Shown here: piece by piece, positions 3,372 through 22,414 of the stretch
How positions within the stretch are numbered: position 1 is the stretch's first letter
Layout: each line of letters begins with the position of its first letter
Source of the DNA: Rhodothermales bacterium
Lineage (GTDB): Bacteria; Bacteroidota; Rhodothermia; Rhodothermales; VXPQ01
NCBI GenBank assembly: GCA_022821845.1
Contig: JAJECT010000018.1
Location: 20,306-84,305, forward strand
DNA: 64,000 nt
Direction of reading: 5' to 3'
Program-made: the position numbers and the translations under genes
Notes under the pieces: model-generated
Seen by the model: only the letters and a program-made list of their open reading frames with translations
Told to the model about the DNA's origin: nothing
Database searches by the model: none

Positions 3372-6300
3372 TTGCCGGACAAGATTCTCAACATTGGCAT
3401 AGGGCATCTGTTTGCTACGTACAACCAGTCCGACCGAAACGCGATTTTTCATATCGCTGGAATGCGGTATTCAGAGGAAAGCGTACCTGAAGAAAAAGAC
3501 TGGATCACGGATCCGGGGCATCGCCTCACGCGGCGTCTCTACGAACAAAGCAGAATCGGCAAGGTCATCCTGGAGGGAAAGCCATCCTGGACAGAAGCAA
3601 AGCCAGACATCGTTGCCTTCTTCAGCGAATTGGACGTGCTTTTCCTGTACGACCGGGAAAACCAGAAGGAATGGTTCGAGCGCGTTGTCCTGAAAGATGC
3701 GCCCAAACCTCCTGTTTGCATTGATCTCCTTGAAATGCATCGCTTTTTCTGTCCAGACCGCGATCTTCCGGACAGAAAAAACCTGTCGGAGCCCAACCTT
3801 TCGGACGACGAAGCCCTGATCCGGCAATTCGTTTCGCAAGCGGAAATAAATCGCTCCGATCCCCGGCTGCCTTTCCTTGTGCGCAGCCTCGGCGGCGTAT
3901 TGCAGGATATCGTGTCCCGCATTCGCTCCGAATCGGAAGCACAGCAAGGAAAACACCTCGTGTACACCTTGCTCGGAAGGGCCCTGAACGCAGGAGAAGC
4001 CGCCACGCCGCCCCCTGCGTTTCGGGATTTCGAAGCCTTGTTTCAGGTGGCAGGCATGGCGCACCGGATCCAATGGAACAAGAATTCTCTTTTCGCCAAT
4101 CCCTATGGAGACGAGGCGCTCCAAATAATCCAGGACACGGATTTCTCGAAAGACCCCGCTATCGAAGGCGATACGCGCAAACAGAGAAATTGGCTGATCC
4201 AGGAATGGAGCAAGTTACTGGCCGAGGAAGCAAAGCAAGGCTATGAGGCCGTACCCCGCCGGAAACCAATCGATCCGAAAAATCCCCCTCGCGTGGCGAG
4301 GCCTGTCGTCCATGCCGAGCGCGTAGACGAGGCTTTTAACTGGCTGATCGAAAAAGAAAACTTAAAGCCTCGCAAAGAACAACAGGATTATGCCCGTTTC
4401 TGCACTGAGGCTATCAACCAAGGGGGATCGTACGCCATTGAGGCCGGAACCGGTACCGGCAAAACACTGGGCTATCTGATACCAGCCTCCGAATGCATCC
4501 GGCAAAGCCAGGCCATGGCCGCGGAGGACATGGAGGATGGCGAGGACGTGGAGGCCGGAAAGGTTATTATCGCCACCGCCACGAAAAACCTGCAGGACCA
4601 CCTTCTGGACAAGGAATGGCGGCGCCTTGCCCAAACCGGATCGCTTTATCAGGATTTCAAGGCGGCGCCGCTCAAAGGCAAAAACAACTTTCTGTGCATT
4701 ACCGCTGTGGCGGACATTTTTGGAGAAACATACACACCACGAGCCCGAAGAAATCATAAAAGTACTGAAAAGACATCCCCGGACGACGAAGCGCAAAAGC
4801 GGCTTGCCTGGTTATTGTTATTCCTTGTTCTGATACATAACCGAGGGGAAACAGAGAGCATTCCCCGGCGTTTTTTCCGATCCCGATTTCCTGATCTGGA
4901 CGATTTTCTAAGCGAAACGAAGGCGGACATAGCCTGTACGCCCGGCCTGTGCCGCATGGGCGCATCCTGTATCTATCCCCGACACCTGCAAGAAGCCCAA
5001 AAGGCAGATATTGTAGTCACGAATCACTACAAGCTTCCCCTTATGGATAGCCAGATACAGGCGCTGGGACATACATGCCTGATCGACGAGGCGGATCAAT
5101 TCCCGGACAATCTGCGCAATGCAGCCACCGTCGAATTTTCCAGTTACGACATTCGACGACATTTCCTGCAACGCATCCAGGGCTCCGCAAATCGTCGCGG
5201 ATTCGCAGATATCCTGGAAGATCGTTTCCTGAAAATGCAAGAATCCGGCAACGACGATATAAATAAAAAAGACATCGATAACGCGCTGGATCATATTCGA
5301 TCTATTCTTGTGTCCTGCGAGGCCATAGAACATTGCTCGAATACCATTGAAAATATATTGCAAAATAGCGGGAAATTTCAAAATAATAATACCGATGAAA
5401 AAAGATGGATTGAATTTGGAGATAATGTTGAAAAAACATTACAAAATAATCTTTCTGATTTGACTGAACATTGTAAAAAAGTTGCTCTGTGCTGGAATGA
5501 TATGTCAGAGATTAAAATATATGGAAATATTAATAATTCGCAACAAAAATATGAAAAAAATCGTATAATAAAATATATGCGTTATGCAAATGATTTATCA
5601 AACAAAGCCAATGAAATTAAAAATGATTACCCTTCTAATAATTATGTTCATGTTTGTTCTTGTAAATATTTTAAATATTCAGATTGGAAATTGAAAAAAA
5701 TTCCGTACAATCTATCTAAGATAGTTCAGACAACCTGTTGCGATCCATATCCTGCAACGATATTTACTTCGGCTACTTTATTCGTAGACGAAAAACTCGA
5801 TTTGTTTTCCACTGAGCTGGGCATTTCGTTTGGTGGAGATATGCGGCGACGCATTTCATCTCCTTTCGCATATGAGAAACAGGTCCAGGGATTCGTGACC
5901 ACTTCGGTTTCAATGGTTCCCAATTCCAAAGATGGTTACGAAAAAAGTATGCAATGGCGCAAAGAGGCCGCCTATGCTATCGCCCGCTTCGCCGTGGCGC
6001 TAAACGGACGTACCCTGGTCCTGTTCACCAACACAAAAGAAATGGCAAATATCTTTGAACAAGTGAAACCCACGCTCGAAAGATACGGTATCGAGCCTCT
6101 GCTACAGGACGGAAGCAGCCTTGCTGAAATAAATATTTTTCGCTCCACGAATCAAAGCGTACTTTTCGGCGTGAATCGATTCTGGACCGGGGTAGATTTC
6201 CCGGGATCTACCCTCTCTCAAGTGATCGTGGTACGCTTGCCTAATCCAAGATGGAAAGGCGATCCCCTGATAGATCACCGAAAATGTCATATGGAATATG

Positions 6301-6638
6301 ATGAATTTCTGGAAAAATATTACCGCCCCGTCTCCAAGTTACGATTGCGACAGGGCTTCGGACGCCTTATCCGCAAGGAAGATGACAAGGGTCTGTTCGT
6401 GGTGCTGGATCAGCGGATCTGGTCTAAAGAACACATGCGCGATATGCAAAACGCCGTGCCCATCCCCCTCCAGCGCCGTTCCACCGAACCGGACGCAATG
6501 GAGGACTGGTTTATCAAAGAGGGGCTGGCGCATTTGGGTTTGACACCAGAATTCAAGCAGCGCAATATTGACCTGCGAAACATAAAAATTACCAGCAAAC
6601 CACGCCCTGCCCCAAGGAGACCTGGCCAAAGAAGATGA
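3372..6638 (+). CDS. DinG/XPD (Rad3)-family Fe-S DNA helicase with an N-terminal extension of about 340 aa
   Basis: Walker A is AGTGTGKTLGYL and motif II is LIDEADQF. The Fe-S cysteines are FLC...IAC-x4-C-x5-C (CTPGLCRMGASC). The C-terminal motifs are TSATL, FWTGVDFPG and QGFGRLIRKEDDKG. The annotated start is TTG. Confidence 0.85.
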   Translation: MPDKILNIGIGHLFATYNQSDRNAIFHIAGMRYSEESVPEEKDWITDPGHRLTRRLYEQSRIGKVILEGKPSWTEAKPDIVAFFSELDVLFLYDRENQKEWFERVVLKDAPKPPVCIDLLEMHRFFCPDRDLPDRKNLSEPNLSDDEALIRQFVSQAEINRSDPRLPFLVRSLGGVLQDIVSRIRSESEAQQGKHLVYTLLGRALNAGEAATPPPAFRDFEALFQVAGMAHRIQWNKNSLFANPYGDEALQIIQDTDFSKDPAIEGDTRKQRNWLIQEWSKLLAEEAKQGYEAVPRRKPIDPKNPPRVARPVVHAERVDEAFNWLIEKENLKPRKEQQDYARFCTEAINQGGSYAIEAGTGTGKTLGYLIPASECIRQSQAMAAEDMEDGEDVEAGKVIIATATKNLQDHLLDKEWRRLAQTGSLYQDFKAAPLKGKNNFLCITAVADIFGETYTPRARRNHKSTEKTSPDDEAQKRLAWLLLFLVLIHNRGETESIPRRFFRSRFPDLDDFLSETKADIACTPGLCRMGASCIYPRHLQEAQKADIVVTNHYKLPLMDSQIQALGHTCLIDEADQFPDNLRNAATVEFSSYDIRRHFLQRIQGSANRRGFADILEDRFLKMQESGNDDINKKDIDNALDHIRSILVSCEAIEHCSNTIENILQNSGKFQNNNTDEKRWIEFGDNVEKTLQNNLSDLTEHCKKVALCWNDMSEIKIYGNINNSQQKYEKNRIIKYMRYANDLSNKANEIKNDYPSNNYVHVCSCKYFKYSDWKLKKIPYNLSKIVQTTCCDPYPATIFTSATLFVDEKLDLFSTELGISFGGDMRRRISSPFAYEKQVQGFVTTSVSMVPNSKDGYEKSMQWRKEAAYAIARFAVALNGRTLVLFTNTKEMANIFEQVKPTLERYGIEPLLQDGSSLAEINIFRSTNQSVLFGVNRFWTGVDFPGSTLSQVIVVRLPNPRWKGDPLIDHRKCHMEYDEFLEKYYRPVSKLRLRQGFGRLIRKEDDKGLFVVLDQRIWSKEHMRDMQNAVPIPLQRRSTEPDAMEDWFIKEGLAHLGLTPEFKQRNIDLRNIKITSKPRPAPRRPGQRR

Positions 6639-8418: not shown

Positions 8419-10017
8419 ATGCAACACATTCGCCTGCGCAATACCCCCAGCCCCGCTTTCAAGACAGCGATAGCCCTTGCGACGGCCGTCTTACTGGCGG
8501 CCTGTTCGCCCGAAGCGCCCAAACAGGGCGTAAACGTTGCGGCCGCTTCGCAAACGGAAACAGCGGCGGCGGACTCGCTTTTCCAGGAGGAACTGGCGCG
8601 AGATATCCGCACCATTGTTACGGGAGTAAAATCGCCCGCGCAACAAGAAGCGCTCGCGCAGGCCGCCCGCATCGCGCCGGGCCAAATGAACCACGACCTG
8701 CGCGAAATCCTCGTCGATGCGGCGACTTTTGTCAATTATTTAATGCTGCCTGCGTTGAAAGCCGACGATGCCCGTCTGGACAGCCTTTCCCAACTTCTGA
8801 CCCGCGCCTTGCAGCCTCAGTTTTCCCAGGAAGAATTGACGGCAGACATTCTGTCCATCGCATATCGTTTCCATGAAGAAAGCACCCCCCTTGAGCCAGT
8901 GCCTCAAGCGCGCCAGGAAACGGCGGCATGGGTGGCCATGCACATGTCTCCCGGAAAAATGGGAGAAGCATTACGACATGCTGTGATTGAAGGAATAGCA
9001 AGTATAGGCAACGAAAGTTATGGTATGTATACGACCAGGAGATTTCTTTTAGACGCATTGATAAATCAAACCCCCGGGGGCATGGAAACGCTGGCGGCAA
9101 ATCCGAAAGCAGTCGTTGGCCCCGGCATTCTTGACGAAGGTCGTATGTCTTCCTTTACATCTTTCGTCCGGCAAATATCAAGGCAGGGTACACCGGAACC
9201 ATATATCCCTCCGCCAACGCCAAAGCCAGAGATCACGCCCTTTCACGGACTTCTCGCGGCTATACAATCTATCTCGGCGGGCGAAAGGAGAGAACGACAA
9301 CTGGAAGCTGTACGGCATGTGGAAAAAATGGCGGAAGCGGATCCAACGCAGATAGGAGATACGCTACGCACGGCGATAGTAGACGCCTTTTTAGATATGC
9401 ACAACGCGGCAGCAAAGCCAACGTGGAGCAACCCGGGAGCCGAAGTCTACTATAGTTTACTGAACACGCTTGAGCGCCTTATCATAATCGTTGGAAATAC
9501 CCAAACAGTTGAACTTTTTACAGAACTTAATTTGTACGAATACGAATGCGTAGGGACCGTAAGCGAAGGTCTCTTCAAAAATTTTCCCGACCACAGCATT
9601 CCGTTGATCATTGAATCCACTGCTCAACCGCGAACGCTATCTGAAAAAACACCCGACGCACTGTATATTCTGGGCGAAATAATAATCGATTACAAACGAG
9701 GCAGGCTGGATATATCGCAGAATAACAGAGACCTGTTGATCGCCACAACCCGGCGTTTTCTGGAAGAAGACCTCTCGCTTGCGTGGAACACGCGAGGCGC
9801 ATCCAATTCGTATAGCGATTCGAACGTTCTGTCCGCAGCTATCCACTTGGCCATCGCGTTGGACGATCCGGACCTGATAGACATCTTGCAGGAATTGGCG
9901 ACGAATCCGGATAAAATAACCGTGCTCGGCCTTTCCGACGAACAGGTGGAAGATTTTCAGGAAGGCATAAAATGGCGTTTAGGCTGGCGGCCCTATATGG
10001 GACCTTCCGATTGTTAG
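8419..10017 (+). CDS. Large predicted lipoprotein of unknown function, predicted alpha-helical
   Basis: It has a signal peptide with a lipobox (AVLLAAC|SPE). It is a long uninterrupted ORF 31 nt downstream of the AsnB-like gene, and G+C drops towards its 3' end. Confidence 0.7.
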   Translation: MQHIRLRNTPSPAFKTAIALATAVLLAACSPEAPKQGVNVAAASQTETAAADSLFQEELARDIRTIVTGVKSPAQQEALAQAARIAPGQMNHDLREILVDAATFVNYLMLPALKADDARLDSLSQLLTRALQPQFSQEELTADILSIAYRFHEESTPLEPVPQARQETAAWVAMHMSPGKMGEALRHAVIEGIASIGNESYGMYTTRRFLLDALINQTPGGMETLAANPKAVVGPGILDEGRMSSFTSFVRQISRQGTPEPYIPPPTPKPEITPFHGLLAAIQSISAGERRERQLEAVRHVEKMAEADPTQIGDTLRTAIVDAFLDMHNAAAKPTWSNPGAEVYYSLLNTLERLIIIVGNTQTVELFTELNLYEYECVGTVSEGLFKNFPDHSIPLIIESTAQPRTLSEKTPDALYILGEIIIDYKRGRLDISQNNRDLLIATTRRFLEEDLSLAWNTRGASNSYSDSNVLSAAIHLAIALDDPDLIDILQELATNPDKITVLGLSDEQVEDFQEGIKWRLGWRPYMGPSDC

Positions 10018-10085
10018 ATAAATTTATATGAAATATGTTTATTTAAGTCTGTTATCAAAATTTATTAAGAACATTCAAACGCTCA

Positions 10086-11054
10086 CTATTCACTGCGATA
10101 CGGCATATCCAAAAGCCGCAAGGTATGATGGAATATTTCGTTTATGAATTTCGCCCATTCACGTTCAATGTGTAATATTTCTGCGAGAAGAAATACTTTT
10201 TCAATGTGCATGTTGTTGAGTTGATTGCGCATTTCTTTCGTCACCACGCCTGCGATCAGGAAATTTTTCGTTCTTGCAGAGGTTCGGTCAAAAGATTTTT
10301 TAACGGCGCCAAGCCGTTCCAGAGCTCCAGCCGGATCGGTGCCGCCCTTCACTTCAATCGTTGCTATCTCTTTCCAGGAACCGTCCGGCATTGCTTCTTC
10401 AAAGCGGATATCCGGTTCAGAGGCATATACCATACGGAAATGGTCTTGAGGACCCAGGTGCCATGCCGTCCGCGCTTCGTTGACCTGGCAGACAATACCC
10501 GACCGGTTTTCAAGCCATTCCGCGATTCTGTCTTTGACGGATCGTTCCGCTTCCTGCCCAATGATATTCCTGAGTGCGCCATCCTGCGTGATGCCGATAG
10601 TCGCAAGAATGTTACGATAGCCATTTTCGAGCGTCCAGTCTGTAGAACCTCGAATAATGGAAGATATAACGGCATTGTACAGACGAGCGACCCGGAGCGC
10701 CTTTTCTTCCGTAACGCGTACGGCTGCAGGCGCTTTTTCCCAACGATCTATGGCGCCAACAATATCTGCGACCCTCTTGCGGGAAAGCGTGGCGATTCCT
10801 CGATAATGCAAGGACGCATCCGGATGTATGCAGAGCAAATCAGGATGGGCAAAAACAAGCCTGGGCTTGGCGCCCGTTTCCTCAATATGTCGCCATGCTT
10901 CCATGTCAATCCCGAACTGCTCAGGCTTGTCCCATGGAAGATGTCCCGCAAATGCAAGTATCTTGTTGCGAACCGCTTCGTCCGTGCGGGCGCGAATCTT
11001 GTCCGAAATAATGCGTGCGCGTTGGCGCGCAGCCTCCAACTTATTCAGGTCCAT
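10086..11054 (-). CDS. Putative type II restriction endonuclease (PD-(D/E)xK candidate)
   Basis: Its ATG follows the methyltransferase stop codon directly (TAA ATG at 11057-11052 on the minus strand). A PD...ExK-like motif is present (ASEPDIRFEE...ATIEVKGG). Its G+C is lower than that of its neighbours. Confidence 0.55.
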   Translation of the reverse strand: MDLNKLEAARQRARIISDKIRARTDEAVRNKILAFAGHLPWDKPEQFGIDMEAWRHIEETGAKPRLVFAHPDLLCIHPDASLHYRGIATLSRKRVADIVGAIDRWEKAPAAVRVTEEKALRVARLYNAVISSIIRGSTDWTLENGYRNILATIGITQDGALRNIIGQEAERSVKDRIAEWLENRSGIVCQVNEARTAWHLGPQDHFRMVYASEPDIRFEEAMPDGSWKEIATIEVKGGTDPAGALERLGAVKKSFDRTSARTKNFLIAGVVTKEMRNQLNNMHIEKVFLLAEILHIEREWAKFINEIFHHTLRLLDMPYRSE

Positions 11055-12557
11055 TTACGTTCGCTGCCAGTGATATACGCATTTACGAATTTCCTGCCGA
11101 CCGAATCGCCCCATCTGCTGGCTGGAATTTCCCTTCCCCCTGGGTAGAGCCCAAATAGTATTGCAACGAAAACCTGACCGTTCGGCAAAATCGGAGAGGA
11201 TCAGATCCACAGGGGCCTCTTCGCCATGATAACGCACATTGTCGTTGACCATGAAAACATGCCCCCCAGGCGCCACGACGCGAGCAAGTTCTGTAATGAC
11301 AACCGCCATTTCCGTGAAATAGTGTAGAAGCAGGCCGATAACGTTACGATTGCCGAGCTCGTCCGCGTGCGCGCGAAGAATAGTCAGAACCTCTGCCAGC
11401 GCAGCATTGGCGTCCACCATCTCAAAAACGCGGCACAACGAGTCAGACGCCCCATATACCCTTGCGAGCTCGTCCCGCTTGGATCGATTTTCGACGGTCG
11501 CAGACAGCAACGCTTGTCGGAGCGTCTTGAACGCCTGTTCATCGTACCCCAGGAACGCCAATTCAAGCGCATACGTGCGGGTATAGTCATACCGATTCGC
11601 ATAAGGTGGCGACGTGACGACCGTATCGAACGACCTGTCGTCGAGATTTCGCAATTCGGTCAGACAGGAACCCCCTATCAACTCCGGCGATGGACCGCCA
11701 TACGTGCGCTTGACAACTGGAATATCCGCGATAATCTGATCCAGGCGGCGTTTCAGCGCGGAGCCGAGCGACGGCAATGGCCCCTTGTCGAGCCGGGTGC
11801 TGTTCGTTCGACCGGAACGAGGATCCCACCGAAGATACTGCCCGTCTTTCCGGGTGTAACTGACATCCTCAATAACCGTCATGCAAGCGAAGTTCAGAAC
11901 AGTCGCAAGGGACGCATCGGACAATCCGGCAAGGAATGTCCGCGCTCTTGCGATGTCTTCCTCAGCTTGCTGCGAAAAAGCCCCCCGCGTGATACGAACA
12001 TGCGGGAAACGCCGCTTTTCGTCCGCTTCGCCGGATTCGATATGCCGAAGCAATCTTGCCGAAGCGTCTGTCAATGTTCCGGGGGAAAGTCCGTTAGCAA
12101 CGGCGGCGATAGCGCCCGCAGCCAGGTTCCCGATCGGCATGATTTCGATACCCGTAGCGCGCTTGCCCATACGGCTGGCCGTCAACGCAGTAGTCCCGAT
12201 ACCGGAAAAGGGATCAAGAACGCGGTTTCCGCCGCCTGTATTCAACAGGCGTTCTACGAGCCGCGTGGAAAACCCTTCCTTGTATTTCATCCAGCGAAAA
12301 CCCGGAATGCTTTTGTTGCCCTGATAAGAAACAAGGCGCCGGGTCAGGTCATAGTCGATGCGGATCCGGCTTGCAAAGCGGGCAAGCAGTTCGCTGCGCG
12401 CGGAAGTTGGCCCGCCATTCGGCGACAGAGCAGGCCGGGAAGCAGGTTTGGCCGCCAGGGGCAACGTCGTCTGGATCACTTTTTTAGACCCTTGGGGGTG
12501 ACTGTGAGATTCGGATAAAGGTACGACAACAATGTGCATTGGTTCGCCGCAGGACAT
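11055..12557 (-). CDS. DNA methyltransferase (N4-cytosine or N6-adenine class)
   Basis: The AdoMet-binding motif is VLDPFSGIGTTALTA. The catalytic motif IV is VVTSPPYANRYDY. The start could instead be the ATG at 12539. Confidence 0.85.
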   Translation of the reverse strand: MSCGEPMHIVVVPLSESHSHPQGSKKVIQTTLPLAAKPASRPALSPNGGPTSARSELLARFASRIRIDYDLTRRLVSYQGNKSIPGFRWMKYKEGFSTRLVERLLNTGGGNRVLDPFSGIGTTALTASRMGKRATGIEIMPIGNLAAGAIAAVANGLSPGTLTDASARLLRHIESGEADEKRRFPHVRITRGAFSQQAEEDIARARTFLAGLSDASLATVLNFACMTVIEDVSYTRKDGQYLRWDPRSGRTNSTRLDKGPLPSLGSALKRRLDQIIADIPVVKRTYGGPSPELIGGSCLTELRNLDDRSFDTVVTSPPYANRYDYTRTYALELAFLGYDEQAFKTLRQALLSATVENRSKRDELARVYGASDSLCRVFEMVDANAALAEVLTILRAHADELGNRNVIGLLLHYFTEMAVVITELARVVAPGGHVFMVNDNVRYHGEEAPVDLILSDFAERSGFRCNTIWALPRGKGNSSQQMGRFGRQEIRKCVYHWQRT

Positions 12558-12573: not shown

Positions 12574-14622
12574 CTACCCCTCCCTGCCCCCCACCTCCTC
12601 GCTCGCCATTGCCCACTGGGCGTACGCCGTATCGAGGTCTTCCTGCATCCGCTCGTATTCGGCGCGCAGCGTACGAATCAGGGCTCCGTTCCGATACGCG
12701 TCCGGGGCCGCCATCTGCTCCTGCATTTCCTGAAAAGCCTGCTCCTTTTCGGCGATTTCCCGTTCCAGGCGGTCGCAATACGCACGCAACTGATGGGTCG
12801 TCATCGCTTCGGGATCGACCGCACCGCCCTGCTTCATGGCCCGGTGCAGACGGTTGCGTTCTTCGGCTTCCCGCCGCTTCTGCTCCTTTGAGCGCGGCCC
12901 GCCGGAACCCTTCCCGGCCGTTTCGGACCGACGCTTTCGAGGCGCCTTTCCGCCCAGCCCCTTCAAAGCCTGCCCTTCCGGTTCGGAACGCGCGCCTCCA
13001 AACCCCATGCGCTCCCTGTTTTCGGAATAAGCGCCAATGAACGTACGCACCTGCCCCGCTGCGGCGTACCAGACGCGGTTGGCCACGCGGTCCAGAAAAT
13101 GCCGGTCGTGGCTGATGACGACAAACGCGCCGGAATACTGGCGCAACGCTTCGACCAGCACCGGAATCGACGCCGCGTCGAGATGGTTGGTCGGCTCGTC
13201 GAGGATCAGGAAATTGGACGGGCGGAGCAAGGTGCGGGCCAGCGTAACCCGGCTCTTTTCTCCCCCGGACAGCACCCGAATGCGCTTGAACACATCGTCC
13301 CCCGTAAACAGAAAGGCGCCCAGCACGGAGCGCAGTTCCCCATCCGTTTTGTCCCCGGCGGCCCGGCGCAGCGATTCGAGAATCGTGTCCGCCGGTTCCA
13401 GCATATCCGCCTGATGCTGGGCGAAAAAGGCATGCTCTACGCGGTAGCCCAACGTCCGCTCGCCCTCGAACGGCTCAGTCCCGTTGAGCATGCGCGCGAG
13501 GGTGGATTTGCCCGCCCCGTTCTTCCCGATCAGGGCAATTTTGTCCCCGCGTTCGACCGCAAGCGGCCCGGCGTTCTCGAAAACGCGAATATCGCCATCC
13601 TCGGTGCGATAGGCTTTGGAAAACGGGCTTAGTTCCAACGCCACGCGCCCGGACCTCGGCGGCTCCGGGAAACGAATGCGCACGGCGGCCTCCTCCGACG
13701 GGGCAGGAGGAATGCGCTTCAGCCGTTCGAGCATTTTCACGCGGCTCTGCACCTGTTTCGCCTTGGACGCCTTGTACCGAAACCGCTCGATGAACCGTTC
13801 CGTGGCGGCGATTTCCCGTTGCTGATTCTCGTGCGCAGCCTGCTGAAGGGCGCGCCGTTCAACGCGTTCCCGGAGATAAAAACTGTAGTTGCCGGCGTAG
13901 GAGTGAATGCGCCCCTGGGCCAGTTCGGCGATGGCCGTCACCATCCGATCCAGAAAATACCGGTCGTGGGAAACGATGACTACGGTCCCCTCGTAGCCTT
14001 TCAGGTGGTTCTCCAGCCAGTCGATACTTTCGATGTCGAGGTGATTGGTCGGCTCGTCAAGCAGCAAATAGTCCGGTTGCCGAAGCAGCAGCCGGGCCAG
14101 CATCGCCCGCATCCGCCACCCCCCGGAAAAAGACTTCACCGGGCGTTCCATATCTTCGGCGGCGAATCCGAGGCCGGCAAGCACCACTTCCGCCTTCGGG
14201 CGAATCATATGGGCCTCGCGCAGGGCCAGTGCCGCATGGACGCGGTCCAGCGCATGAAGCCGCCCGGCGTACTCGGCGCCCTCGTGGTTCTGCAACCCCT
14301 CCAGTTCGGAAACGAGTTGCGCTTCCTCGGCCTGAAGGTCCCGAATGTCCGAGAATCCTTTCAGCGCCTCGTCCAGAATAGACGCCTCGGAGTCGAGCGC
14401 CTGCACATCCTGCTCCAGATACCCGATAGATGTGCGAGCGCCCATGGCCAACCGCCCCTCGTCCGGCTCGATATGCCCTTCAACGAGGCGGAGCATGGTG
14501 GTTTTGCCCGCGCCGTTCTTCCCGATCAGCCCGATGCGTTCCCCGACAGGAATGCTCCACGACAAGCGGTCGAAAAGCACCTGATCGGCAAAACGGAGCG
14601 ATATGTCCTGGAACTGGATCAT
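12574..14622 (-). CDS. ABC-F family ATPase (Uup/YheS-like) with tandem ABC domains and a C-terminal coiled coil
   Basis: It has two Walker A motifs (GKNGAGKTT and GKNGAGKST). It has two signature motifs (FSGGWRMR and LSGGEKSR). It has no TM domain and ends in a basic, coiled-coil tail. Confidence 0.9.
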   Translation of the reverse strand: MIQFQDISLRFADQVLFDRLSWSIPVGERIGLIGKNGAGKTTMLRLVEGHIEPDEGRLAMGARTSIGYLEQDVQALDSEASILDEALKGFSDIRDLQAEEAQLVSELEGLQNHEGAEYAGRLHALDRVHAALALREAHMIRPKAEVVLAGLGFAAEDMERPVKSFSGGWRMRAMLARLLLRQPDYLLLDEPTNHLDIESIDWLENHLKGYEGTVVIVSHDRYFLDRMVTAIAELAQGRIHSYAGNYSFYLRERVERRALQQAAHENQQREIAATERFIERFRYKASKAKQVQSRVKMLERLKRIPPAPSEEAAVRIRFPEPPRSGRVALELSPFSKAYRTEDGDIRVFENAGPLAVERGDKIALIGKNGAGKSTLARMLNGTEPFEGERTLGYRVEHAFFAQHQADMLEPADTILESLRRAAGDKTDGELRSVLGAFLFTGDDVFKRIRVLSGGEKSRVTLARTLLRPSNFLILDEPTNHLDAASIPVLVEALRQYSGAFVVISHDRHFLDRVANRVWYAAAGQVRTFIGAYSENRERMGFGGARSEPEGQALKGLGGKAPRKRRSETAGKGSGGPRSKEQKRREAEERNRLHRAMKQGGAVDPEAMTTHQLRAYCDRLEREIAEKEQAFQEMQEQMAAPDAYRNGALIRTLRAEYERMQEDLDTAYAQWAMASEEVGGREG

Positions 14623-14743
14623 GGGGGACTGGCCCGCACTCGTAGAAGCCGCACACGCTACGAAAAATCACGGAGATGCGCCAGCCCGGCCCGTAAGAGA
14701 ATACGCCGCCTGGGGCCAAAACCTCCTCAACGAGGCCAAATCC

Positions 14744-15601
14744 TCAACTACCCCGGAAGCGTTCCAGCAATTCGTACCGCCTCCGTTCCAGGATGTGCGT
14801 AATCAGCCGAATCCAGCGCGCATGAAAAAGAAGGCCCGCCAGACCCAGCACGGCCATCGTCGGAAAAATTATTTCCCGGGTTTGCGAAAAGAAATACAAA
14901 GAAACGACGAACGCCATGCTCAAAACGGTCAATACCCAAAAAACGGGCACGATCCACCGGGACGGGATTGCGTCTTTGGAAACAGTATCTACGCGATACG
15001 GATCCCCGTGCCCCGCATCGCGAAATTTGAGATTCAGGTTCGTACGCGCGACCGGCTGAAAAGCGGTAACGGCGAACGCAAGCAGATAATTGCCGACGCC
15101 CAAAACATACAAGCCCGAAGCGCCTGTCATAAACACGTCGCCCCAATCTCCCCGAACCAGCGCGGATGCGACCACCAAGACGCCGAAAAAAAGCGCGGCG
15201 AATACGTGGAATGCGTATACGACGATCCAGGCAATGTGGCTTTCCGATACGGGCCTTGCCAGCAACCCGTCATAGAATCGGCTTCGGGAAATAAGCAAAA
15301 AAGAAGAAATCGGAACCGTTAGCATAAGGTACAGCACCAGGGAATACCCATCGGGAGAATGGCTCAATGCAGAAGCCAGTCCGACGAGTAGCACAAAGCC
15401 GAAAACCATAAGCGCCAGGCGAGGACGCCTGTTCCGCAACTGGAGCTTCCACTCCACGGAAAGAAGCGCCCATCGCAATCCCCGAACCGCTTGCGGGCGG
15501 TCAGCGCGTTGTCCCTTTTGCACAACCGATAAAGCCATAGCCAGTCCTCGCAAATAAACAGGCGACCGGTCGTCGCGCCTATACCGCCACCGACCGGGCA
15601 A
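14744..15601 (-). CDS. Multi-pass membrane protein, half-size paralog of the two upstream ABC-associated membrane proteins
   Basis: It shares the motifs EWKLQLRNRRPR and SRFYDGLLARPVS with the products of 16369-17895 and 17903-19387. The start may be the ATG at 15538. Confidence 0.7.
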   Translation of the reverse strand: MPGRWRYRRDDRSPVYLRGLAMALSVVQKGQRADRPQAVRGLRWALLSVEWKLQLRNRRPRLALMVFGFVLLVGLASALSHSPDGYSLVLYLMLTVPISSFLLISRSRFYDGLLARPVSESHIAWIVVYAFHVFAALFFGVLVVASALVRGDWGDVFMTGASGLYVLGVGNYLLAFAVTAFQPVARTNLNLKFRDAGHGDPYRVDTVSKDAIPSRWIVPVFWVLTVLSMAFVVSLYFFSQTREIIFPTMAVLGLAGLLFHARWIRLITHILERRRYELLERFRGS

Positions 15602-16289
15602 AGAATCGTTCCAGTTCCTTCAGGGTCTCGTCCGAAATCAGTTCGTCCCGCTCGATCCGCCCCTGATGCAGCAGCAGAATGCGCTCGCAAGCGTCCGTAA
15701 CGTGACCCAGATCATGGCTCGAAACCAGAATCGTCGCTTTCGTCTCCTGCGAAATTTCAGCCAGAATCTGCTGCAAGGCGTATTGCGACGTGGGGTCCAG
15801 GTTCGCGAACGGCTCGTCCAGCACCAGCACGGAAGGCTTCACCAGCAACGCCGCCAGCAGCCCCACTTTCTTTCGGTTGCCCGCCGAAAGGTCGCGGATC
15901 AACTTGCCCGTACCCAGCACCTCCTCCGTAAACAGGTTCGCGTACCGCCGCTCCCCCGCCTCGATCTCTTCCAGAGACATCCCGTACGCCTTCCCCACGA
16001 AACTGAAATACTCCTCCGCATTCAGAAAATCGATCAGGAAACCTTCGTCGAGATAGGAACCCGTGTGCGACTTCCAGCCGGTCGTCTTGTCCACGCGCTC
16101 GCCGCCAAGCGACACATGCCCCTTCGTAGCCTGAACCAGGTCCAGCACCAGCCGGAGCATCGTGGTCTTGCCCGCTCCGTTGTTCCCCACGAGGCCCACC
16201 ACCTGACCGTCGGGTATCTCCAGATGCGGAACGTCTACGGCGACCACATCGCCGTACTCCTTGACAAGGTCTTTCAGAATGATCTCCAT
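15579..16289 (-). CDS. ABC transporter ATP-binding protein
   Basis: It starts MEIILKDLVKEYGD. Walker A is GNNGAGKTT, the signature is LSAGNRKK and Walker B is LVLDEPF. The ORF-track N-terminal extension is rejected. Confidence 0.9.
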   Translation of the reverse strand: MEIILKDLVKEYGDVVAVDVPHLEIPDGQVVGLVGNNGAGKTTMLRLVLDLVQATKGHVSLGGERVDKTTGWKSHTGSYLDEGFLIDFLNAEEYFSFVGKAYGMSLEEIEAGERRYANLFTEEVLGTGKLIRDLSAGNRKKVGLLAALLVKPSVLVLDEPFANLDPTSQYALQQILAEISQETKATILVSSHDLGHVTDACERILLLHQGRIERDELISDETLKELERFFARSVAV

Positions 16290-16368
16290 GGCGCAGCGCG
16301 GGACAAAGGGACAAAAAGTTTCACCTGGGAAAAAACCAGACGCAAAACCTGCCTTCAGGTTCCCCGCG

Positions 16369-17895
16369 TTATACCCGAAACCGCCCCAGGACAACGTACC
16401 GACGCGCGCGCAGGCGGCGAGCAAGGCGTTTGGTCAGCCATGGCTGGAAACAAAGTCCCACCAAGCCCAACGCGCCCAGCGATAGCCCAAGCCATACTCT
16501 GGATACGGACTGCAAAAGCGCTAAAATGCCAGGCAATGCAAGAATAAGGATAAAAAAGCAATTCATGAGTATCGCCTGTGTATTTACAACGAATATCAAT
16601 GAAATATTGGGTTCCATCACATTGGCATTGGGCGGACGCGGAACAGGAAACAAAATATTTAAAAATAATGCCGTATAATTTATAATTCCCATGCTAAATA
16701 ATAAAATACCATGTACAAAAATCCATTCAAAATAAATTATTTTATAAAATAACATATTAATTGATATAATGGAGAATATAAAAATAATTACAATTGTCAA
16801 AATTCCTCGATGAGATATCGATAAAAGAATTCGCAGTAATGTATTTTCGGATATTGGCCACACATTCATGCCATCGTAAAAAGAGTGTCTGAAATCCAAT
16901 GCAGAAGCAAAATACATTAATGAATACAGAATCAAATATAATAGATTTAATTCAATAAAAGGAATATTTATAAAATCCATCTCATTGCCAAGCGCAGTGA
17001 TCATAAAAATAACAAAAAACATCATCCCCATAGAAGCCATCGCTATCACGCGGGGCTGCCTGTTTCTCAGTATGAGCTTCCATTCGCAAGAACGCAATTC
17101 TGCCGTCAGGTTCCGAGCGTTGCGTTTGGTTCTGAACACCCTTTTCTTGCCCATGAAACCGGACGCAGCCGAATAGTCCATATACAGACTCTGGCGCACG
17201 CTCCGCACAGCCCCGTAAAACAGACCGCCTCCCAGGATGGCCAGAAGCATTGACGGCCAGGCCGCCCCTGTTTCGGCGGCGTGGAAAAGCGTGGCGGAAG
17301 CGACAGACAACATGCGCGTCTCGTACCCCCATTCAAGCGCCGCCAACGCTGCAACGCAAAGCCATATCCCCAGCAGCGGCAGATACCCTCTTCCTCGCCA
17401 GAAACGAAGGATATTCGCCGCAAAGTGCATGCATGCATACGCCAGACACAGAACCAGCAGCCAGTTCCAAGCGAAAGCCACATCCCGGAGATACAGATTT
17501 TTGACCCAAAACCCCGTTATGAACGTCAATGCGAACAGGTTAAACTTGCCGCACAGCATAACGATCTGATAAAACAACGCCAACTTCTGTCTGGCCGTTG
17601 GGGTAGCGAGATACGGGAAAAGCGGTACGTGCGCCCTGCGACGAAGCAGCATGCCATCGACAAGGCCGCCTATGATAAGCGCCGGGGCCAAAACCGGATT
17701 CACGCGAGCAAGCAAATCGACGGAAGGGTCGATCTCCAGAAATCGCACGACGGAAAAACCCATATAAAAGGCATAGAGCAAGACAGGCGCCCAAAAGCAA
17801 AGCGCCATAAGCACATTGCCCCCCAAAATCCACGTTCCAAACGGAGACCGCAGGGTCCGCTTCAGATAATGCGAGACCAGAGAATGGACAAGCAT
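16369..17895 (-). CDS. ABC-associated multi-pass membrane protein (putative permease, uncharacterised family)
   Basis: It has about 12 hydrophobic segments. It is a paralog of 17903-19387: MLVHSLVSHYLKR vs MLIRSLASNYLKS, CEWKLILRNRQPR vs FEWKLIWRNKRPR, and FRHSFYDGMNVWPIS vs FRSTFYDGLMSRPVS. Confidence 0.8.
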   Translation of the reverse strand: MLVHSLVSHYLKRTLRSPFGTWILGGNVLMALCFWAPVLLYAFYMGFSVVRFLEIDPSVDLLARVNPVLAPALIIGGLVDGMLLRRRAHVPLFPYLATPTARQKLALFYQIVMLCGKFNLFALTFITGFWVKNLYLRDVAFAWNWLLVLCLAYACMHFAANILRFWRGRGYLPLLGIWLCVAALAALEWGYETRMLSVASATLFHAAETGAAWPSMLLAILGGGLFYGAVRSVRQSLYMDYSAASGFMGKKRVFRTKRNARNLTAELRSCEWKLILRNRQPRVIAMASMGMMFFVIFMITALGNEMDFINIPFIELNLLYLILYSLMYFASALDFRHSFYDGMNVWPISENTLLRILLSISHRGILTIVIIFIFSIISINMLFYKIIYFEWIFVHGILLFSMGIINYTALFLNILFPVPRPPNANVMEPNISLIFVVNTQAILMNCFFILILALPGILALLQSVSRVWLGLSLGALGLVGLCFQPWLTKRLARRLRARRYVVLGRFRV

Positions 17896-17902
17896 AGCCC
17901 CC

Positions 17903-19387
17903 TCACCGCTTCCGAAACTCCTCCATAATCAAGTAGTGCTTCCGCTCAAGCCTTTTTACGGCCCCGTCGATCCACTTGCGGCGCCAAAGCAGCCCCGCCA
18001 GTCCCAGCAACGCGATCGCTATGCTGCCCCAATACATACCCGGCAGGAGCAATACGAGTAAAAAGGGAATGAGTATCCCCGGCAGCACCCAAAGGCCCGT
18101 AATCCACGAATTCTTATCCCACCGAGCGGCAACGACGCCAAAAACCTGGCCGTTGAGTTCAAGCCGCCTGGCGTCCAGAACCCATGTGTAGGGCACAGTA
18201 TATTTCAACGCTAAACCATACAAAAGCATACACCCGACAAAAAACAGCGATCCGAATCCTTTTATAATAACAAAAATGATTGCAATAAGACCAAGCGTTC
18301 CAAATAATGCTATGTTGGCAATAGAAAAACTGCTTGTCAATATCGAATGGATAGATACGGGTCGAGACATCAGGCCATCATAGAATGTGCTTCGAAAATT
18401 AAAAGCGCCCATCATAAACTGCAAACAGCCCAAAACAGGCATCAACAAGCCCATGGTCATCTCCGTAGGAGATACATCCGACAAACTGGACATGCCAATG
18501 GCGATCCAGCCGCCGAATACTACGAAATAGACGCTCAGGAACATCAGCATCCGGGGGCGCTTGTTCCGCCAGATCAACTTCCACTCGAAAGCCAGCATCC
18601 CGTCGGCGAACGAATGCCTCAGTCCCTTCCCGACCGCCTTGGCGCGCGAGCGGGACAGGATACTGTTGTCCACGTAAAGCGACCGAATCACCTGCCCGGT
18701 GGATACGTACAGCGCCGCCCCGCTTGCGACGAGCGCCGCGGCCAAAGGCCAGAAAGCCCCCTCCAACATCGCCCCGAACAACGCCATGGAAAGGCCAGAC
18801 AAGGTCGAAATGTCGTACCGCCACTCTATCGCCGCCAGCCCCGCGACGACAAGAAGCGTACAAATAACAGGCAGGTAGCGCCGCGCAAGCGACATCCGCA
18901 GCAGGTTCGCCAGAAAATGAAACCCGGCGGATAACGTCAGGAAAAGCAGCATCCAGCCCCAGGCATAGGGAACGCCCGCCACAAGAAAATTGCTGATCCA
19001 GAAAAATAAAACGAACAAAAACGGCAATAAATTAAATTGCCCGAAAACGCTTATCGCCTGATAAAAAAGCGCGACTTTCCCCCGACCGATCGGAGTGGGC
19101 AGGTACGGAAACAGCGGAAGGGCTATCTGGGGCCGAAAAAGAATATCCAGGGCGCCCCATACAATGAAAAAATACAAGGCGAACCGGCTGGCGAGGACCG
19201 CCATGTCCACGTCGAAAAAGAGTTCCCTCGCCAGCAAGCCGCCAAACAACCCGCCCGCCATCGCGTACAGATACAGCGGCATCCATACGAACAGGATGGT
19301 AAGCGCCTTCATCGCCAGTTTCATCTCCCCGAAACGGGAGCGGCGAATGCTTTTCAGGTAATTCGAGGCAAGGGAACGAATCAGCAC
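17903..19387 (-). CDS. ABC-associated multi-pass membrane protein (putative permease, uncharacterised family)
   Basis: It is the paralog of the previous gene and the first gene of the minus-strand cluster. The gap to the next gene is 7 nt. Confidence 0.8.
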   Translation of the reverse strand: MLIRSLASNYLKSIRRSRFGEMKLAMKALTILFVWMPLYLYAMAGGLFGGLLARELFFDVDMAVLASRFALYFFIVWGALDILFRPQIALPLFPYLPTPIGRGKVALFYQAISVFGQFNLLPFLFVLFFWISNFLVAGVPYAWGWMLLFLTLSAGFHFLANLLRMSLARRYLPVICTLLVVAGLAAIEWRYDISTLSGLSMALFGAMLEGAFWPLAAALVASGAALYVSTGQVIRSLYVDNSILSRSRAKAVGKGLRHSFADGMLAFEWKLIWRNKRPRMLMFLSVYFVVFGGWIAIGMSSLSDVSPTEMTMGLLMPVLGCLQFMMGAFNFRSTFYDGLMSRPVSIHSILTSSFSIANIALFGTLGLIAIIFVIIKGFGSLFFVGCMLLYGLALKYTVPYTWVLDARRLELNGQVFGVVAARWDKNSWITGLWVLPGILIPFLLVLLLPGMYWGSIAIALLGLAGLLWRRKWIDGAVKRLERKHYLIMEEFRKR

Positions 19388-19510
19388 GAGACAAGGACAA
19401 ACAGGTTAACGCTTTGGGCTACAGCCGGAATTCGAAGGCCCGTGCCCGCCGCACAGGTACGATAAATCACTTCATGCGCCATAGACAAAACCAACCCGCA
19501 AAAGCGATTT

Positions 19511-22414
19511 TCAGTTCCGCCCGAGTTCGCTTTCCCGCCCTCGGTTGTCCGCTTCCCCGGACGCCTCCGAATCCGCCGACGCCTCCGGGTACAACACGAA
19601 TTTTGCGTACTGGTCCTCGCGCAAGTACCGGTTCGCAGCTTCCTGCACCTGCTGCGCCGTCCACCCATCGATCAGGTCATAGGAAGGGATCGTCCGCAGG
19701 TCGCGCCCTTGCTCATCCATGCCTTCCATCCGGCCAAGCCAGTAGCCGTTTTCGCGCAGGTTCGTCTCCTTTGCGCGCCGCTGCGATTCGCGCACCTTGT
19801 CCACGGTTTCCGCATCGGGCCCCTCGGTCCTGATCCGCGCGATTTCCTCGAATACGACTTCCGCCAATTCCTCGGCCCGCTCCGGAGCCGAACCGAAATT
19901 GATCGTTACGGAATATTCCTCGTCCGGGCGATACGACAGCGAACCTCCCACGCCTACGCCGTACGTCCCGCCCAAATCCTCGCGCAACAGTTCGCGAAGA
20001 CGAATTTCCAGTATGCTGGCCAGCGCGCCCAGCGCAATCGATTCTTCGGGGGAGTACGCCCCTTCGCCCGCAAACACGATCTGCGTCTGGCTTTGCGGCT
20101 CCATGCCCTTGTACACGGCCTTTTCGATCACGCCGGACGGCGGGTCCACGCCCAGATCGCGCCAGGTTTCCTCGCGCCCAAGGTTCGGCAACGCCCCAAG
20201 ATATTGCTCGACCAGCGGGCGAATGCCCTCCAGATCGAACGCGCCCACGAAATAGAAGGTAAAATCGCTTGCATCCGCAAAACGGTCCTGGTAAAAAGCG
20301 AAGGCCCGGTCCAGATCCAGCTCCGCAAGGCGTTCCCGGGTAAACGGCTGCGACGCCCGCGGATGCCCCTGCGTCATCGTGGCCCGGATCGTATCCGAGA
20401 ACGCCACATTCGGGTTGGCCTCCCGATTCGCCAGCACCCCGTCCATAAACGCCTTGTACGCCTCGAACGCCATTTCGTCCTTGCGCGGCGCCGTGAAGTA
20501 CAAATATACCAGTTGGAACGCTGTTTCCAGGTCTTTGGGCGATGCAAACCCGCTGATCACCTCGCTCAGCGAACCCAACCCAGGGGAAACGCCCGCCACC
20601 TTGCCCGACAGTTTCTTTTGCAGCGCCGTATCGTCGAACGCGCCCACGCCGGAGCGAAGCACAAAGGCAGCCGCCCGATTCGTGCTTGGATAATGTTCGT
20701 CGGGCCCCAGCGACGAGCCTCCCGGACTGCTTGCCGAAAACAGCACCTCGTCGTCCTTGAAGTCGGTGGGCTTCAGCAATACGCGCACGCCATTCTCCAG
20801 CGTCCAGGTCGTAATGTCCACCTCTTCCACGGTCTCTTGGGCCACCACCGGAGACCCCTCCGGCAACGTCGGCACAAGCGGCGCGTCGACTACCGCGTCG
20901 TCGTACGGTTCGACGTCCGCCGCAGCCACCGCCTCGAACAGCGCGGTCAGGTCGTCCTCTCCGGGCGTCTCGACGCCTTCCTTTTCGGGGCCGCTCGCCA
21001 GCACCACGCGCCCCTCTTCCGCCAGCCATTGTCCGGCGAATACATTCGTTTCCTCCAGCGTAATCCCGGGCAACAGGGCACGGACGATCTCCACCTCCGT
21101 TTCAATGTCCGGATACGGATAGCCATGCAGGAACACCTGCGCGTATCCGCCGGCCAGCGCGCCCGACTCCCGATTTTCGCGCTCCGCAAGGCCCTGCTCG
21201 TAGCCCCGGAGCAAATCGACTTTCTGTCGCTCGAATTCGGTGACCGTAAACCCGTGCCGCACCACCCGCTCCGCCTCGGTAAGCAGCGCGCGCAGGCCCG
21301 CCTCCACGCCGCCCTCCGAAACAATGGCCACAAGTTGATACGCGTCAATGACCCGAACGAACCCGCCTTGCCCGGAAAACGCGAACAAAAACGGCGGATC
21401 CGCCTGCTGGGTCAGTTCCTGCAAGCGGGCGTTCAGCATGCCCGAATACAGACTCTGAACAAGCCCCCGCCGAAAGTCCCCAACGGTCCCGTGCGGCGCG
21501 CGCGGCTGCTTGTACAAGACGCCCGCCTGAGACATTTGCGCCTCCTCGTCCGTCGCAATCGCCACCAGCGGAGGATGATCCAGGGGCACGTCGGCAAACG
21601 TCCGGGGCCGGGGATCGTCCGGCCCGGTCAAATCCCCGAACGTATCGCGTATCGTCGCCTCGATTGCGTCCCCGTCGAAATCCCCCACCGCCACGACGCC
21701 CATCAGGTCCGGCCGGTACCAGTCGCGGTAAAACCGCCGCAGCGTCTCCGCCGGGACATGCTCAATAATTTCCGGCAACCCGATGGGCAAACGCTCCGCG
21801 TACAACGAACCGTGCAACATCACCGGGAGCTGCTTGTCCTGCATCCGCGCCGCCGCGCCGCGCCGCAGCCGCCACTCCTCGATCACCACGCCCCGTTCCT
21901 TCTCCACTTCCTCGTCCTCGAAAAGCACGCCCCCCGCCCAGTCCCGGAGAATCCGAAAGCCGGTCGCAAGCGCCTCGGGATCGTCCAGCGGCACTTGCAG
22001 CATGTAGACCGTTTCGTCGAAACTCGTATAGGCGTTCAGATCGGGGCCGAACTGCATGCCGATCGACTCCAGATAATCGACCAGTTCCTGCTTTTCGAAG
22101 CGTTCGGTGCCGTTGAACGCCATGTGCTCCACGAAATGGGCCAGCCCGCGCTGGTCCTCGTCCTCGACGATAGACCCCGCATTCACGATGAGGCGCAATT
22201 CGGCCCGATTCTCCGGCCTGTCGTTCTCCTGAACGAAGTAACGCAGTCCATTGTCCAGCTGACCGACCGCGACCGAGGAATCCGGCGGAATGGGGTCCTC
22301 CGGCGACCACGTCTGCGCCGCCGCATCGGTCCGGGGGGCAAAAAACAACAGGCCGGCGCACAAGAATGCAACAAAGCGAGCGACCGCTGCCCGGGAACGC
22401 AAGAAATACGTCAT
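19511..22414 (-). CDS. M16 (pitrilysin/insulinase) family zinc peptidase, double-length and secreted
   Basis: The HxxEH zinc motif appears as GLAHFVEHMAFNGT. A signal peptide is present if the start is MTYFLRS (ATG at 22414). The two halves are M16-like. Confidence 0.9.
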   Translation of the reverse strand: MTYFLRSRAAVARFVAFLCAGLLFFAPRTDAAAQTWSPEDPIPPDSSVAVGQLDNGLRYFVQENDRPENRAELRLIVNAGSIVEDEDQRGLAHFVEHMAFNGTERFEKQELVDYLESIGMQFGPDLNAYTSFDETVYMLQVPLDDPEALATGFRILRDWAGGVLFEDEEVEKERGVVIEEWRLRRGAAARMQDKQLPVMLHGSLYAERLPIGLPEIIEHVPAETLRRFYRDWYRPDLMGVVAVGDFDGDAIEATIRDTFGDLTGPDDPRPRTFADVPLDHPPLVAIATDEEAQMSQAGVLYKQPRAPHGTVGDFRRGLVQSLYSGMLNARLQELTQQADPPFLFAFSGQGGFVRVIDAYQLVAIVSEGGVEAGLRALLTEAERVVRHGFTVTEFERQKVDLLRGYEQGLAERENRESGALAGGYAQVFLHGYPYPDIETEVEIVRALLPGITLEETNVFAGQWLAEEGRVVLASGPEKEGVETPGEDDLTALFEAVAAADVEPYDDAVVDAPLVPTLPEGSPVVAQETVEEVDITTWTLENGVRVLLKPTDFKDDEVLFSASSPGGSSLGPDEHYPSTNRAAAFVLRSGVGAFDDTALQKKLSGKVAGVSPGLGSLSEVISGFASPKDLETAFQLVYLYFTAPRKDEMAFEAYKAFMDGVLANREANPNVAFSDTIRATMTQGHPRASQPFTRERLAELDLDRAFAFYQDRFADASDFTFYFVGAFDLEGIRPLVEQYLGALPNLGREETWRDLGVDPPSGVIEKAVYKGMEPQSQTQIVFAGEGAYSPEESIALGALASILEIRLRELLREDLGGTYGVGVGGSLSYRPDEEYSVTINFGSAPERAEELAEVVFEEIARIRTEGPDAETVDKVRESQRRAKETNLRENGYWLGRMEGMDEQGRDLRTIPSYDLIDGWTAQQVQEAANRYLREDQYAKFVLYPEASADSEASGEADNRGRESELGRN

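Follow-up and report, generated by a model that had tools for sequence, protein, structure and literature searches.

An in-frame G+C valley in a DUF5687 membrane-protein gene of a Rhodothermales bacterium coincides with a hypervariable cassette exchanged by homologous recombination

A 64-kb stretch of DNA from a Rhodothermales bacterium (contig JAJECT010000018.1, positions 20,306 to 84,305; hereafter the window) carries a gene, here named gene A, which encodes a membrane protein of the DUF5687 family and in which the composition passes, within a single reading frame, from GC-rich to extremely AT-rich. This AT-rich stretch is probably a hypervariable cassette of the DUF5687 protein that is swapped by recombination and that has become AT-rich through exclusion from a GC-favouring force. 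Across orthologues and paralogues, the G+C valley falls on the cassette and is passed on together with it. The variable DUF5687 core exists as discrete, deeply diverged classes. These classes move between backgrounds by homologous recombination with crossovers in the flanking constant arms, within a genome, tandem paralogues have homogenised arms, and paralogues with a non-variable second domain, which provide a natural control, have no valley.

The mean G+C content of the window is 59%, and of its nine stretches below 42% the one at positions 16550-17030 is among the two deepest, with a G+C content of 28.3% (equally low 480-nucleotide (nt) windows make up only 0.2%) and a minimum of 18% in 120-nt windows. 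Across the variable region of gene A (16492-17043) G+C is 0.308, as compared to 0.564 in the remainder of the gene. This in-frame drop in the 3' portion of the gene had been described in a first-pass annotation of the same DNA, the line counts of which (8 G/C per 60 nt at 16741 and 37/60 at 17581) are exact, and it is confirmed here, the frame being open and the G+C content of third codon positions (GC3) being lowered. Gene A is an open reading frame (ORF) of 508 codons which stays open through 184 AT-rich codons, the probability of this occurring by chance being ~3e-6, and the other five frames of the AT-rich stretch contain 5-17 stops. The cassette has a GC3 of 0.30 (0.19 in its core, minimum 0.13), whereas 0.75-0.77 is expected for the same amino acids from the codon usage of four conserved genes of the window that served as reference, encoding UvrB, an M16 peptidase, an ABC-F protein and an ATP-binding cassette (ABC) transporter ATPase. 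All three codon positions are shifted towards AT, with no special strand skew; the leucine codon TTA is found 10 times in the AT-rich stretch versus 0/254 in the four reference genes, and the residues F, Y, M, I, N and K represent 47% of this stretch versus 24% of the N-terminal half of the protein. Amino acid composition alone was ruled out as the cause of the dip by the GC3 test (0.30 against 0.77 expected), and Rfam, repeat and alternative or nested ORF checks of the valley returned no match.

Because relatives have the same dip at the same place, the valley is neither an assembly error nor a recent foreign insert. The gene A protein is exactly encoded, with identical DNA, on the ENA scaffold KELL22-1_SAMN22237337 (186.9 kb) and in a separate Logan assembly. 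A sister strain from another sample (locus L004), which is 96.3% identical over 15.3 kb, has the same valley at 85% nt identity, and the long-read assemblies L005, L006 and L012-L014 show the same architecture. A chimeric metagenome contig, in which low-GC reads would have been joined into a high-GC gene, had been named in the first-pass annotation as a possible source of error and would be in keeping with the origin of the window from a metagenome scaffold; it is nevertheless made extremely improbable by the identity of the two assemblies, by the open frame with the family motifs in register, and by the presence of the same valley in the strain of the second sample and in high-fidelity (HiFi) or long-read genomes. 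Likewise, a recently acquired low-GC island is not what was found, as the segment is present at the same site in all relatives and the searches for a donor returned none.

Orthologues of gene A at 88, 61, 58, 57 and 54% identity (L004, L003, L005, L007 and L006, respectively, of which L003 is the Rhodothermales metagenome-assembled genome chromosome OZ220686.1, L005 a HiFi assembly and L006 a long-read assembly) all have a G+C and GC3 valley at residues ~285-455. The L003 orthologue (at ~7050) loses its frame inside the AT-rich part, where the ORF stops after 358 codons, which reflects a pseudogene or else an error of sequencing, the stretch being rich in homopolymers, and it was omitted from codon analyses on account of this frameshift. 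Most paralogues in relatives, namely those of type B, p2, p3 and one class of type C, dip at the homologous place. The p1-type paralogues (L006, L008, L009) have no valley: their GC3 is 0.6-0.8 throughout and their second half is conserved like the first, with a pairwise identity of 0.67-0.87. Among genes of type C, the class of the window, L003 and L004 is without a valley, while that of L005 and L007 has one. A dip universal in the family at the codon level, which the first-pass annotation had regarded as speaking against its own interpretation, is thus seen in large part, since the dip recurs in composition-matched homologues but not in every paralogue class (p1 and one C class being free of it). 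The milder dip announced for the neighbouring paralogue, gene B, is real (18181-18450, G+C 0.35-0.40, GC3 down to 0.27), and its depth is uneven between orthologues, the minimum GC3 of B being 0.50 in L003. The dips of A and B do occupy homologous positions, around and after a shared FYDG motif (residue 339 in A and 335 in B), although their placement just after this motif is wrong for gene A, the valley of which starts ~55 codons ahead of FYDG and directly after the EWKLILRNRQPR motif.

The valley corresponds to the part of the protein that varies. Alignments A1-A4 show strong conservation of the N-terminal 284 residues and of the last ~40 but not of residues ~285-468, and in a window-wise comparison of 11 codon-aligned genes conservation is positively correlated with GC3 (Spearman rho 0.59, p = 2e-4). 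As GC3 is low even at the conserved FYDG motif within the variable region, the low G+C content is a property of the block and not of single unconstrained sites. Among 25 B-type proteins, which fall into 7 cassette classes, the median pairwise identity is 84% in the N-terminal arm versus 43% in the cassette, and of the 43 pairs whose arms are at least 88% identical, 26 have cassettes sharing no more than 50% identity. The A-type genes comprise three cassette classes (window and L004; L005 and L007; L006, L011 and L014, the last being referred to as class iii), which are 50-62% nt identical to one another, while the arms of L005, L006, L007, L011 and L014 are 88-98% identical among themselves. 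Conserved arms around discrete divergent classes are therefore found in A-type and B-type genes alike, with an arm identity of 84-98% where the cassette identity is 36-62%.

Exchange of the cassette can be followed most directly in the A-type gene of L011, which is 92-100% identical at the nt level to that of L005 up to alignment column 280, then 90-98% identical to that of L006 and only 50-70% to that of L005 from column ~281 to ~465, and again L005-like in its last 120 nt. It thus constitutes a double-crossover mosaic with breakpoints at the edges of the valley, the 3' crossover mapping to the homologous place of the C-terminal arm of gene A. The same discordance between arms and cassettes is seen in proteins: the identities of N-terminal arm, cassette and tail are 98, 38 and 93% for P0007 versus P0011, and 85, 93 and 88% for P0010 versus P0011, respectively. 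Between L005 and L007 the arms differ by 5.5% and the cassettes by 0.2%, and in class iii the cassettes share 94-96% identity and the arms 88-93%. The arms of the paralogues p2 and p3 are 91% nt identical within a genome, as compared to 85-87% for cross-genome orthologues, whereas their cassettes follow orthology (85% between genomes versus 60-67% within a genome), from which gene conversion of the arms is deduced.

Segmental recombination with low-GC homologues, as proposed in the first-pass annotation, is thereby borne out as far as recombination is concerned, through the L011 mosaic and through discrete classes that are discordant with their arms; its partners, however, are alleles of the same gene family in related Rhodothermales which are themselves AT-rich in this segment, and no low-GC donor was found among 1.84 billion representative proteins, phages, plasmids or viral contigs. 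No significant direct or inverted repeats were detected in 14500-19500, nor any invertase or silent partial copies, and there is no recombinase among the called genes of the array and no reverse transcriptase among the neighbouring genes. A shufflon, invertible or silent-cassette system was ruled out on the basis of the missing repeats in 14500-19500 and the missing recombinase in the array, and a diversity-generating retroelement target on the basis that no repeat of the variable region and no reverse transcriptase among the neighbours were found.

When the window strain is compared with the sister strain L004, no coding stretch in 15 kb is more diverged than the cassette of gene A (71-89% identity versus 95-99% elsewhere), and a maximum chi-square analysis delimits residues 289-359, with 26% mismatches inside versus 6% outside, a contrast reached by 0/200 permutations. 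The rate of synonymous substitution (dS) rises from 0.12 in the N-terminal arm to 0.39 in the cassette, and amounts to 0.84 in its first third (amino acids (aa) 285-345), while the rate of nonsynonymous substitution (dN) rises in proportion (both ~3.4-fold), so that dN/dS is 0.31 in arm and cassette alike. Considering that dS and dN are both raised while their ratio is unchanged, the segment fits an older or imported allele better than one merely under relaxed constraint. Sites that are AT in the window and GC in L004 number 40 versus 23 for the reverse, the window allele being the AT-richer one.

This strong divergence of the A cassette and the AT-richer window allele are what would be expected if localised hypermutation (by deamination or error-prone repair) drove the segment to AT, in line with the localised mutational process put forward in the first-pass annotation. 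Such a process is very improbable, given that the other valleys of the window are no more diverged than their flanks: that of gene B is at background divergence from L004 (96-97% identity), and an equally AT-rich valley inside a helicase gene (5221-5820) is 96-100%, and mostly 99-100%, identical between the two strains. In addition, one orthologous pair of p2 genes has a uniform dS (0.27-0.35) across arms and cassette, the valley of gene A is free of special strand skew, and the classes are discrete, with no continuum between them.

Mutation is described as universally AT-biased. In this Rhodothermales lineage, the constant arms (the whole first domain and the EWKL..RN helix on one side, the last helix and the tail on the other) flank the variable core of the second domain, which is predicted to comprise transmembrane helices TM7-TM11. 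The interior of this cassette may be too diverged between classes to form a heteroduplex, because of which it would escape a recombination-linked force, either GC-biased conversion or selection, and the same force would keep the arms, the neighbouring genes and the spacers at 55-70% G+C. AT-biased mutation would then be unopposed on old allele lineages, and a shift to Ile, Phe, Asn, Tyr and Lys would follow that lipid-facing helices could tolerate, while the diversity itself may be kept by frequency-dependent selection on the membrane-exposed surface, for example by toxins or phages. Exclusion from a GC-raising force fits with the coincidence of compositional borders and crossover points, with the conserved paralogues that are free of a valley, and with the GC3 of B-type arms beside the border (0.83-0.93 versus 0.78 in the reference genes). 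In bacteria, the G+C content of genes has been reported to be positively linked to recombination, independently of codon selection (Lassalle et al. 2015, PMC4450053), in the context of the GC-biased gene conversion hypothesis. The present locus resembles that recombination-linked heterogeneity in that synonymous sites are GC-rich in the conserved and recombining arms and AT-rich in the segment that would escape conversion; it differs in that whole genes were compared by Lassalle et al. (2015), whereas here the contrast would lie within a gene at a scale of ~500 nt and the direction of singleton changes has opposite signs in two classes.

Several observations weigh against this explanation or against the evidence on which it draws. 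The G+C content of the valley (0.16-0.31) is far below that of core-region spacers (0.51-0.72), so that simple neutral decay would suffice only if this recombination-linked force also kept the spacers high. With just 3-4% divergence from its L004 counterpart, the B cassette could recombine within its class, yet it dips. Polarised singletons, which are small in number, give an equilibrium G+C of 0.54-0.68 for the p3 class, above its present 0.40, and, of opposite sign and likewise from small counts, 0.11-0.29 for A class iii, below its present 0.36. The L011 mosaic was obtained from a short-read metagenome contig which ends 136 nt past the gene, and a chimera is formally possible, although two switches would be required and the contig was seen in three samples. 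The AlphaFold2 model of the gene A protein, built from 23 sequences, is poor (predicted local distance difference test score (pLDDT) 51), and a profile of 23 sequences gave no match at E <= 1 against all PDB chains. DUF5687 is absent from the literature; genes A, B and C match no PADLOC defence model, and the ATPase encoded alongside has only generic ABC/AAA similarities. Finally, the cause given here for the AT-richness is inferred.

The p3 singletons, the gap between valleys and spacers, and the dip of the B cassette together keep an ameliorating AT-rich cassette pool alive as a rival. According to this possibility, to which a minor but appreciable probability is assigned, the cassettes and the helicase segment stem from an outside AT-rich gene pool (low-GC organisms or mobile DNA) and were repeatedly imported through the arms, thereafter ameliorating. 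It would account for a G+C content below that of every core spacer and for TTA codons that are otherwise unused, it agrees with the excess of AT-to-GC changes among the few p3-class singletons and with a helicase valley that is missing from the L006 orthologue, and cassette import by double crossover does occur. Yet an exhaustive HMMER search with the cassette alone against 1.84 billion representative proteins returned only two family members, at 31-32% identity (it replaced a word-indexed search with the 183-aa cassette, which gave 250 candidates and no match but missed the source protein itself and was therefore uninformative), and no relatives were found in viral contigs, phages or plasmids (viral-contig scan, phage and plasmid blastn). 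Each cassette class is AT-rich in all lineages examined, including pairs that co-diverged with their arms, for which dS is 0.27 in the cassette versus 0.35 in the N-terminal arm (p2) and 0.71 versus 0.61 (B versus the B gene of L003), and the A class iii singletons, again in small counts, point the other way. Moreover, as homologous exchange needs arms that are conserved at the DNA level, donors would be limited to close relatives. Exclusion from GC-favouring conversion or selection is favoured here over an AT-rich cassette pool.

Selection for AT-richness at the nucleic-acid level appears unlikely. Under this reading, rare AT-ending codons would slow translation while the second domain is inserted into the membrane or would throttle expression, or else the AT tract would provide the downstream ATPase gene with an internal promoter or would itself be bound or silenced. 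The position of the valley is kept across the family, the 10 TTA codons represent a codon never used in the reference genes, and the valley is enriched in sigma-70-like hexamer pairs (9 in 14500-19600 versus 3.4 expected); most of these promoter-like matches, however, are antisense and are expected from the AT content alone, and were not counted as evidence. The depth of the valley varies widely between orthologues, and no RNA family or repeat was found in it. The p1-type paralogues and gene C of the window have the same helix layout and no valley, from which it follows that the fold does not need one, and the idea of a translational pause is weakened accordingly.

The features of the locus are listed in Table 1. 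Gene A matches positions 3-482 of the 484 of profile PF18940 (gathering cutoff 33 bits) and is thus a full-length match above the cutoff. Its N-terminal arm shares 93% aa and 95% nt identity with that of L004 and 66% aa identity with those of L005 and L006. The cassette of gene B has a GC3 of 0.53 (core 0.37) versus 0.79-0.81 expected, and gene C has no marked dip in the window genome (GC3 0.47-0.73). The ATPase gene lies directly downstream of gene A both here and in 9/9 related loci that extend past the gene, the contig of L011 stopping earlier, and its product has its best NCBIfam similarities, all below cutoff, to DrrA, GldA and lantibiotic-protection ATPases. In the low-confidence AlphaFold2 model the gene A protein is all-helical and forms two bundles, with one basic amphipathic helix ahead of each of them (MLxxSLxSxYLK and EWKLILRNRQPR, respectively). 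Judging from these sequence features, genes A and B encode DUF5687 membrane partners of a small ABC ATPase, as a putative ABC-2-like membrane subunit.

Table 1. Features of the DUF5687 locus (positions refer to the window)
Feature	Position	Strand	Remarks
Gene A, DUF5687 membrane protein, 508 aa, fused double transmembrane domain	16369..17895	-	PF18940 59.6 bits; identical call in two assemblies
Gene A constant N-terminal arm, aa 1-284 (first transmembrane domain, basic linker, EWKLILRNRQPR helix)	17044..17895	-	G+C ~0.55, GC3 0.65
Gene A hypervariable AT-rich cassette, aa 285-468, predicted TM7-TM11 and FYDG loop	16492..17043	-	G+C 0.31, GC3 0.30; least conserved in alignments A1-A3; helices from low-confidence model
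Block most diverged between window strain and L004, aa 289-359	16822..17031	-	Maximum chi-square
Gene A constant C-terminal arm (last TM helix, basic tail)	16369..16491	-	G+C 0.61; 91% aa identity to L004
Gene B, DUF5687 paralogue, 494 aa	17903..19387	-	PF18940 136 bits; 31% aa identity to A
Gene B variable cassette, aa 282-440; dip proper 18181-18450	18068..18544	-	G+C 0.46 (core 0.38)
ABC transporter ATP-binding subunit, 236 aa, directly downstream of gene A, between A and C	15579..16289	-	PF00005 6e-21
Gene C, half-size DUF5687 paralogue, second-domain type only, ~264 aa from Met22 of 285-aa ORF	14744..15538	-	PF18940 positions 256-482, 29.1 bits, below cutoff

The likeness to ABC-2-type exporter permeases with DrrA/GldA-like ATPases consists in the adjoining small ATPase of that group, in the all-helical polytopic partner and in the basic amphipathic helix that precedes each bundle of the modelled DUF5687 protein. 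The differences are that DUF5687 proteins have no detectable match to solved ABC permeases, that they consist of two fused domains, of which one is hypervariable, and that one ATPase gene serves 2-6 tandem permease genes. Array size ranges from ~2.5 DUF5687 copies in the window to 5-6 in L005 and L006. In three relatives AbiEi/AbiEii modules are located between DUF5687 paralogues (L005 3102-4679; L011 6399-7988; L014 1-4667 and 8677-10266), and in L014 GmrSD and a type I HsdR are found just upstream; the locus behaves as a variable hotspot that collects defence genes. The genome-collection scan gave one related locus and the metagenome scan four, a number too small for a family-wide survey beyond the lineage. 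This branch of the family seems confined to one uncultured Rhodothermales-like lineage; P0034, a homologue of gene B, is from 'Bacteroidetes bacterium SB0662_bin_6', and the other relatives are metagenome proteins.

The helicase gene mentioned above (3372-6638, plus strand; DEAD and Helicase_C_2, best PADLOC model typeIV_DinG at 7.8e-84) has a GC3 of 0.07-0.30 in its valley. Its orthologue in L006 is without a valley, the corresponding stretch having a G+C content of 0.53-0.66 and only 5-13/30 identical residues, which makes the helicase valley look like a lineage-specific segment replacement, unlike the family-wide valley of DUF5687. The link between this valley and that of gene A is thus weaker than the first-pass annotation took it to be, the helicase valley being absent from the more distant L006 orthologue. 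Elsewhere in the window, positions 8419-12557 harbour a type II restriction-modification pair (an XcyI-like endonuclease at 10086-11054 and an N4/N6 methylase at 11055-12557) alongside a 532-aa gene, and L004 has one 764-aa gene (15397-17691) in place of this restriction-modification region; the spacer 10018-10085 has 19% G+C, and low-GC patches occupy 9451-9630 and 9901-10290. Further low-GC valleys are located at 31531-32580 and 34441-35550. The gene at 34457-36091 (minus strand), a possible remnant of a mobile element, has a GC3 that falls to 0.03-0.20 mid-gene, a Peptidase_M15_3 match and a weak match to a fragment of the rve_3 integrase. Two other local peaks of divergence from L004 (25346-25570 and 26021-26245, 77-86% identity) show no drop in G+C; one lies at or beside the gene for ribosomal protein L31, called as 109 aa in the window and 79 aa in L004.

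Mosaic genes of this general kind are known from other systems. In HsdS, the specificity subunit of type I restriction systems, constant arms surround diverged target-recognition segments which are swapped by homologous recombination, the variable part having a lower G+C content. Constant arms, discrete diverged segments discordant with the arms and a variable part of lower G+C are likewise seen in DUF5687. In DUF5687, however, it is a transmembrane helix bundle of a putative ABC membrane subunit that varies, and not a DNA-binding domain, and the variants are present as complete tandem paralogues, with no invertase, inverted repeats or silent copies found. The wzx and wzy genes of surface-polysaccharide loci are low-GC, highly diverse genes for polytopic membrane proteins in higher-GC genomes, and are recombined via their conserved flanks. 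They and DUF5687 have in common diverse inner-membrane proteins rich in Ile, Phe, Leu and Asn, rare AT-rich codons and a G+C content far below that of the genome. They differ in that there the whole gene or locus is low in G+C and neighbouring genes act as arms, whereas in DUF5687 the border lies inside one frame after a conserved motif, and in that no polysaccharide genes adjoin the DUF5687 array. Two things are new: the sharpness of the compositional border within one frame, and its carrier, an uncharacterised ABC partner that occurs as 2-6 tandem copies for each ATPase gene and bears the variable module in its second transmembrane domain.

More speculatively, the tandem DUF5687 arrays might form a cassette-polymorphic inner-membrane ABC system under frequency-dependent selection, serving for instance in immunity to, or evasion of, membrane-targeting toxins or phages, in which the second domain would be a specificity module traded among related symbiont or environmental Rhodothermales and the valley a sub-genic read-out of excluded GC-biased conversion. 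If this were true, the arrays would offer a natural system for measuring GC-biased conversion, a disputed process in bacteria, and if the compositional contrast is due to exclusion from such conversion, within-gene tests of that hypothesis become possible at loci of this type. For annotation and binning, a caution follows in that such valleys are neither chimeras nor signs of recent foreign DNA. A sharp in-frame G+C valley in these genomes is instead a landmark of a recombining hypervariable module, and the division into a conserved first domain with an ATPase interface and an exchangeable second domain provides a first functional hint for DUF5687.

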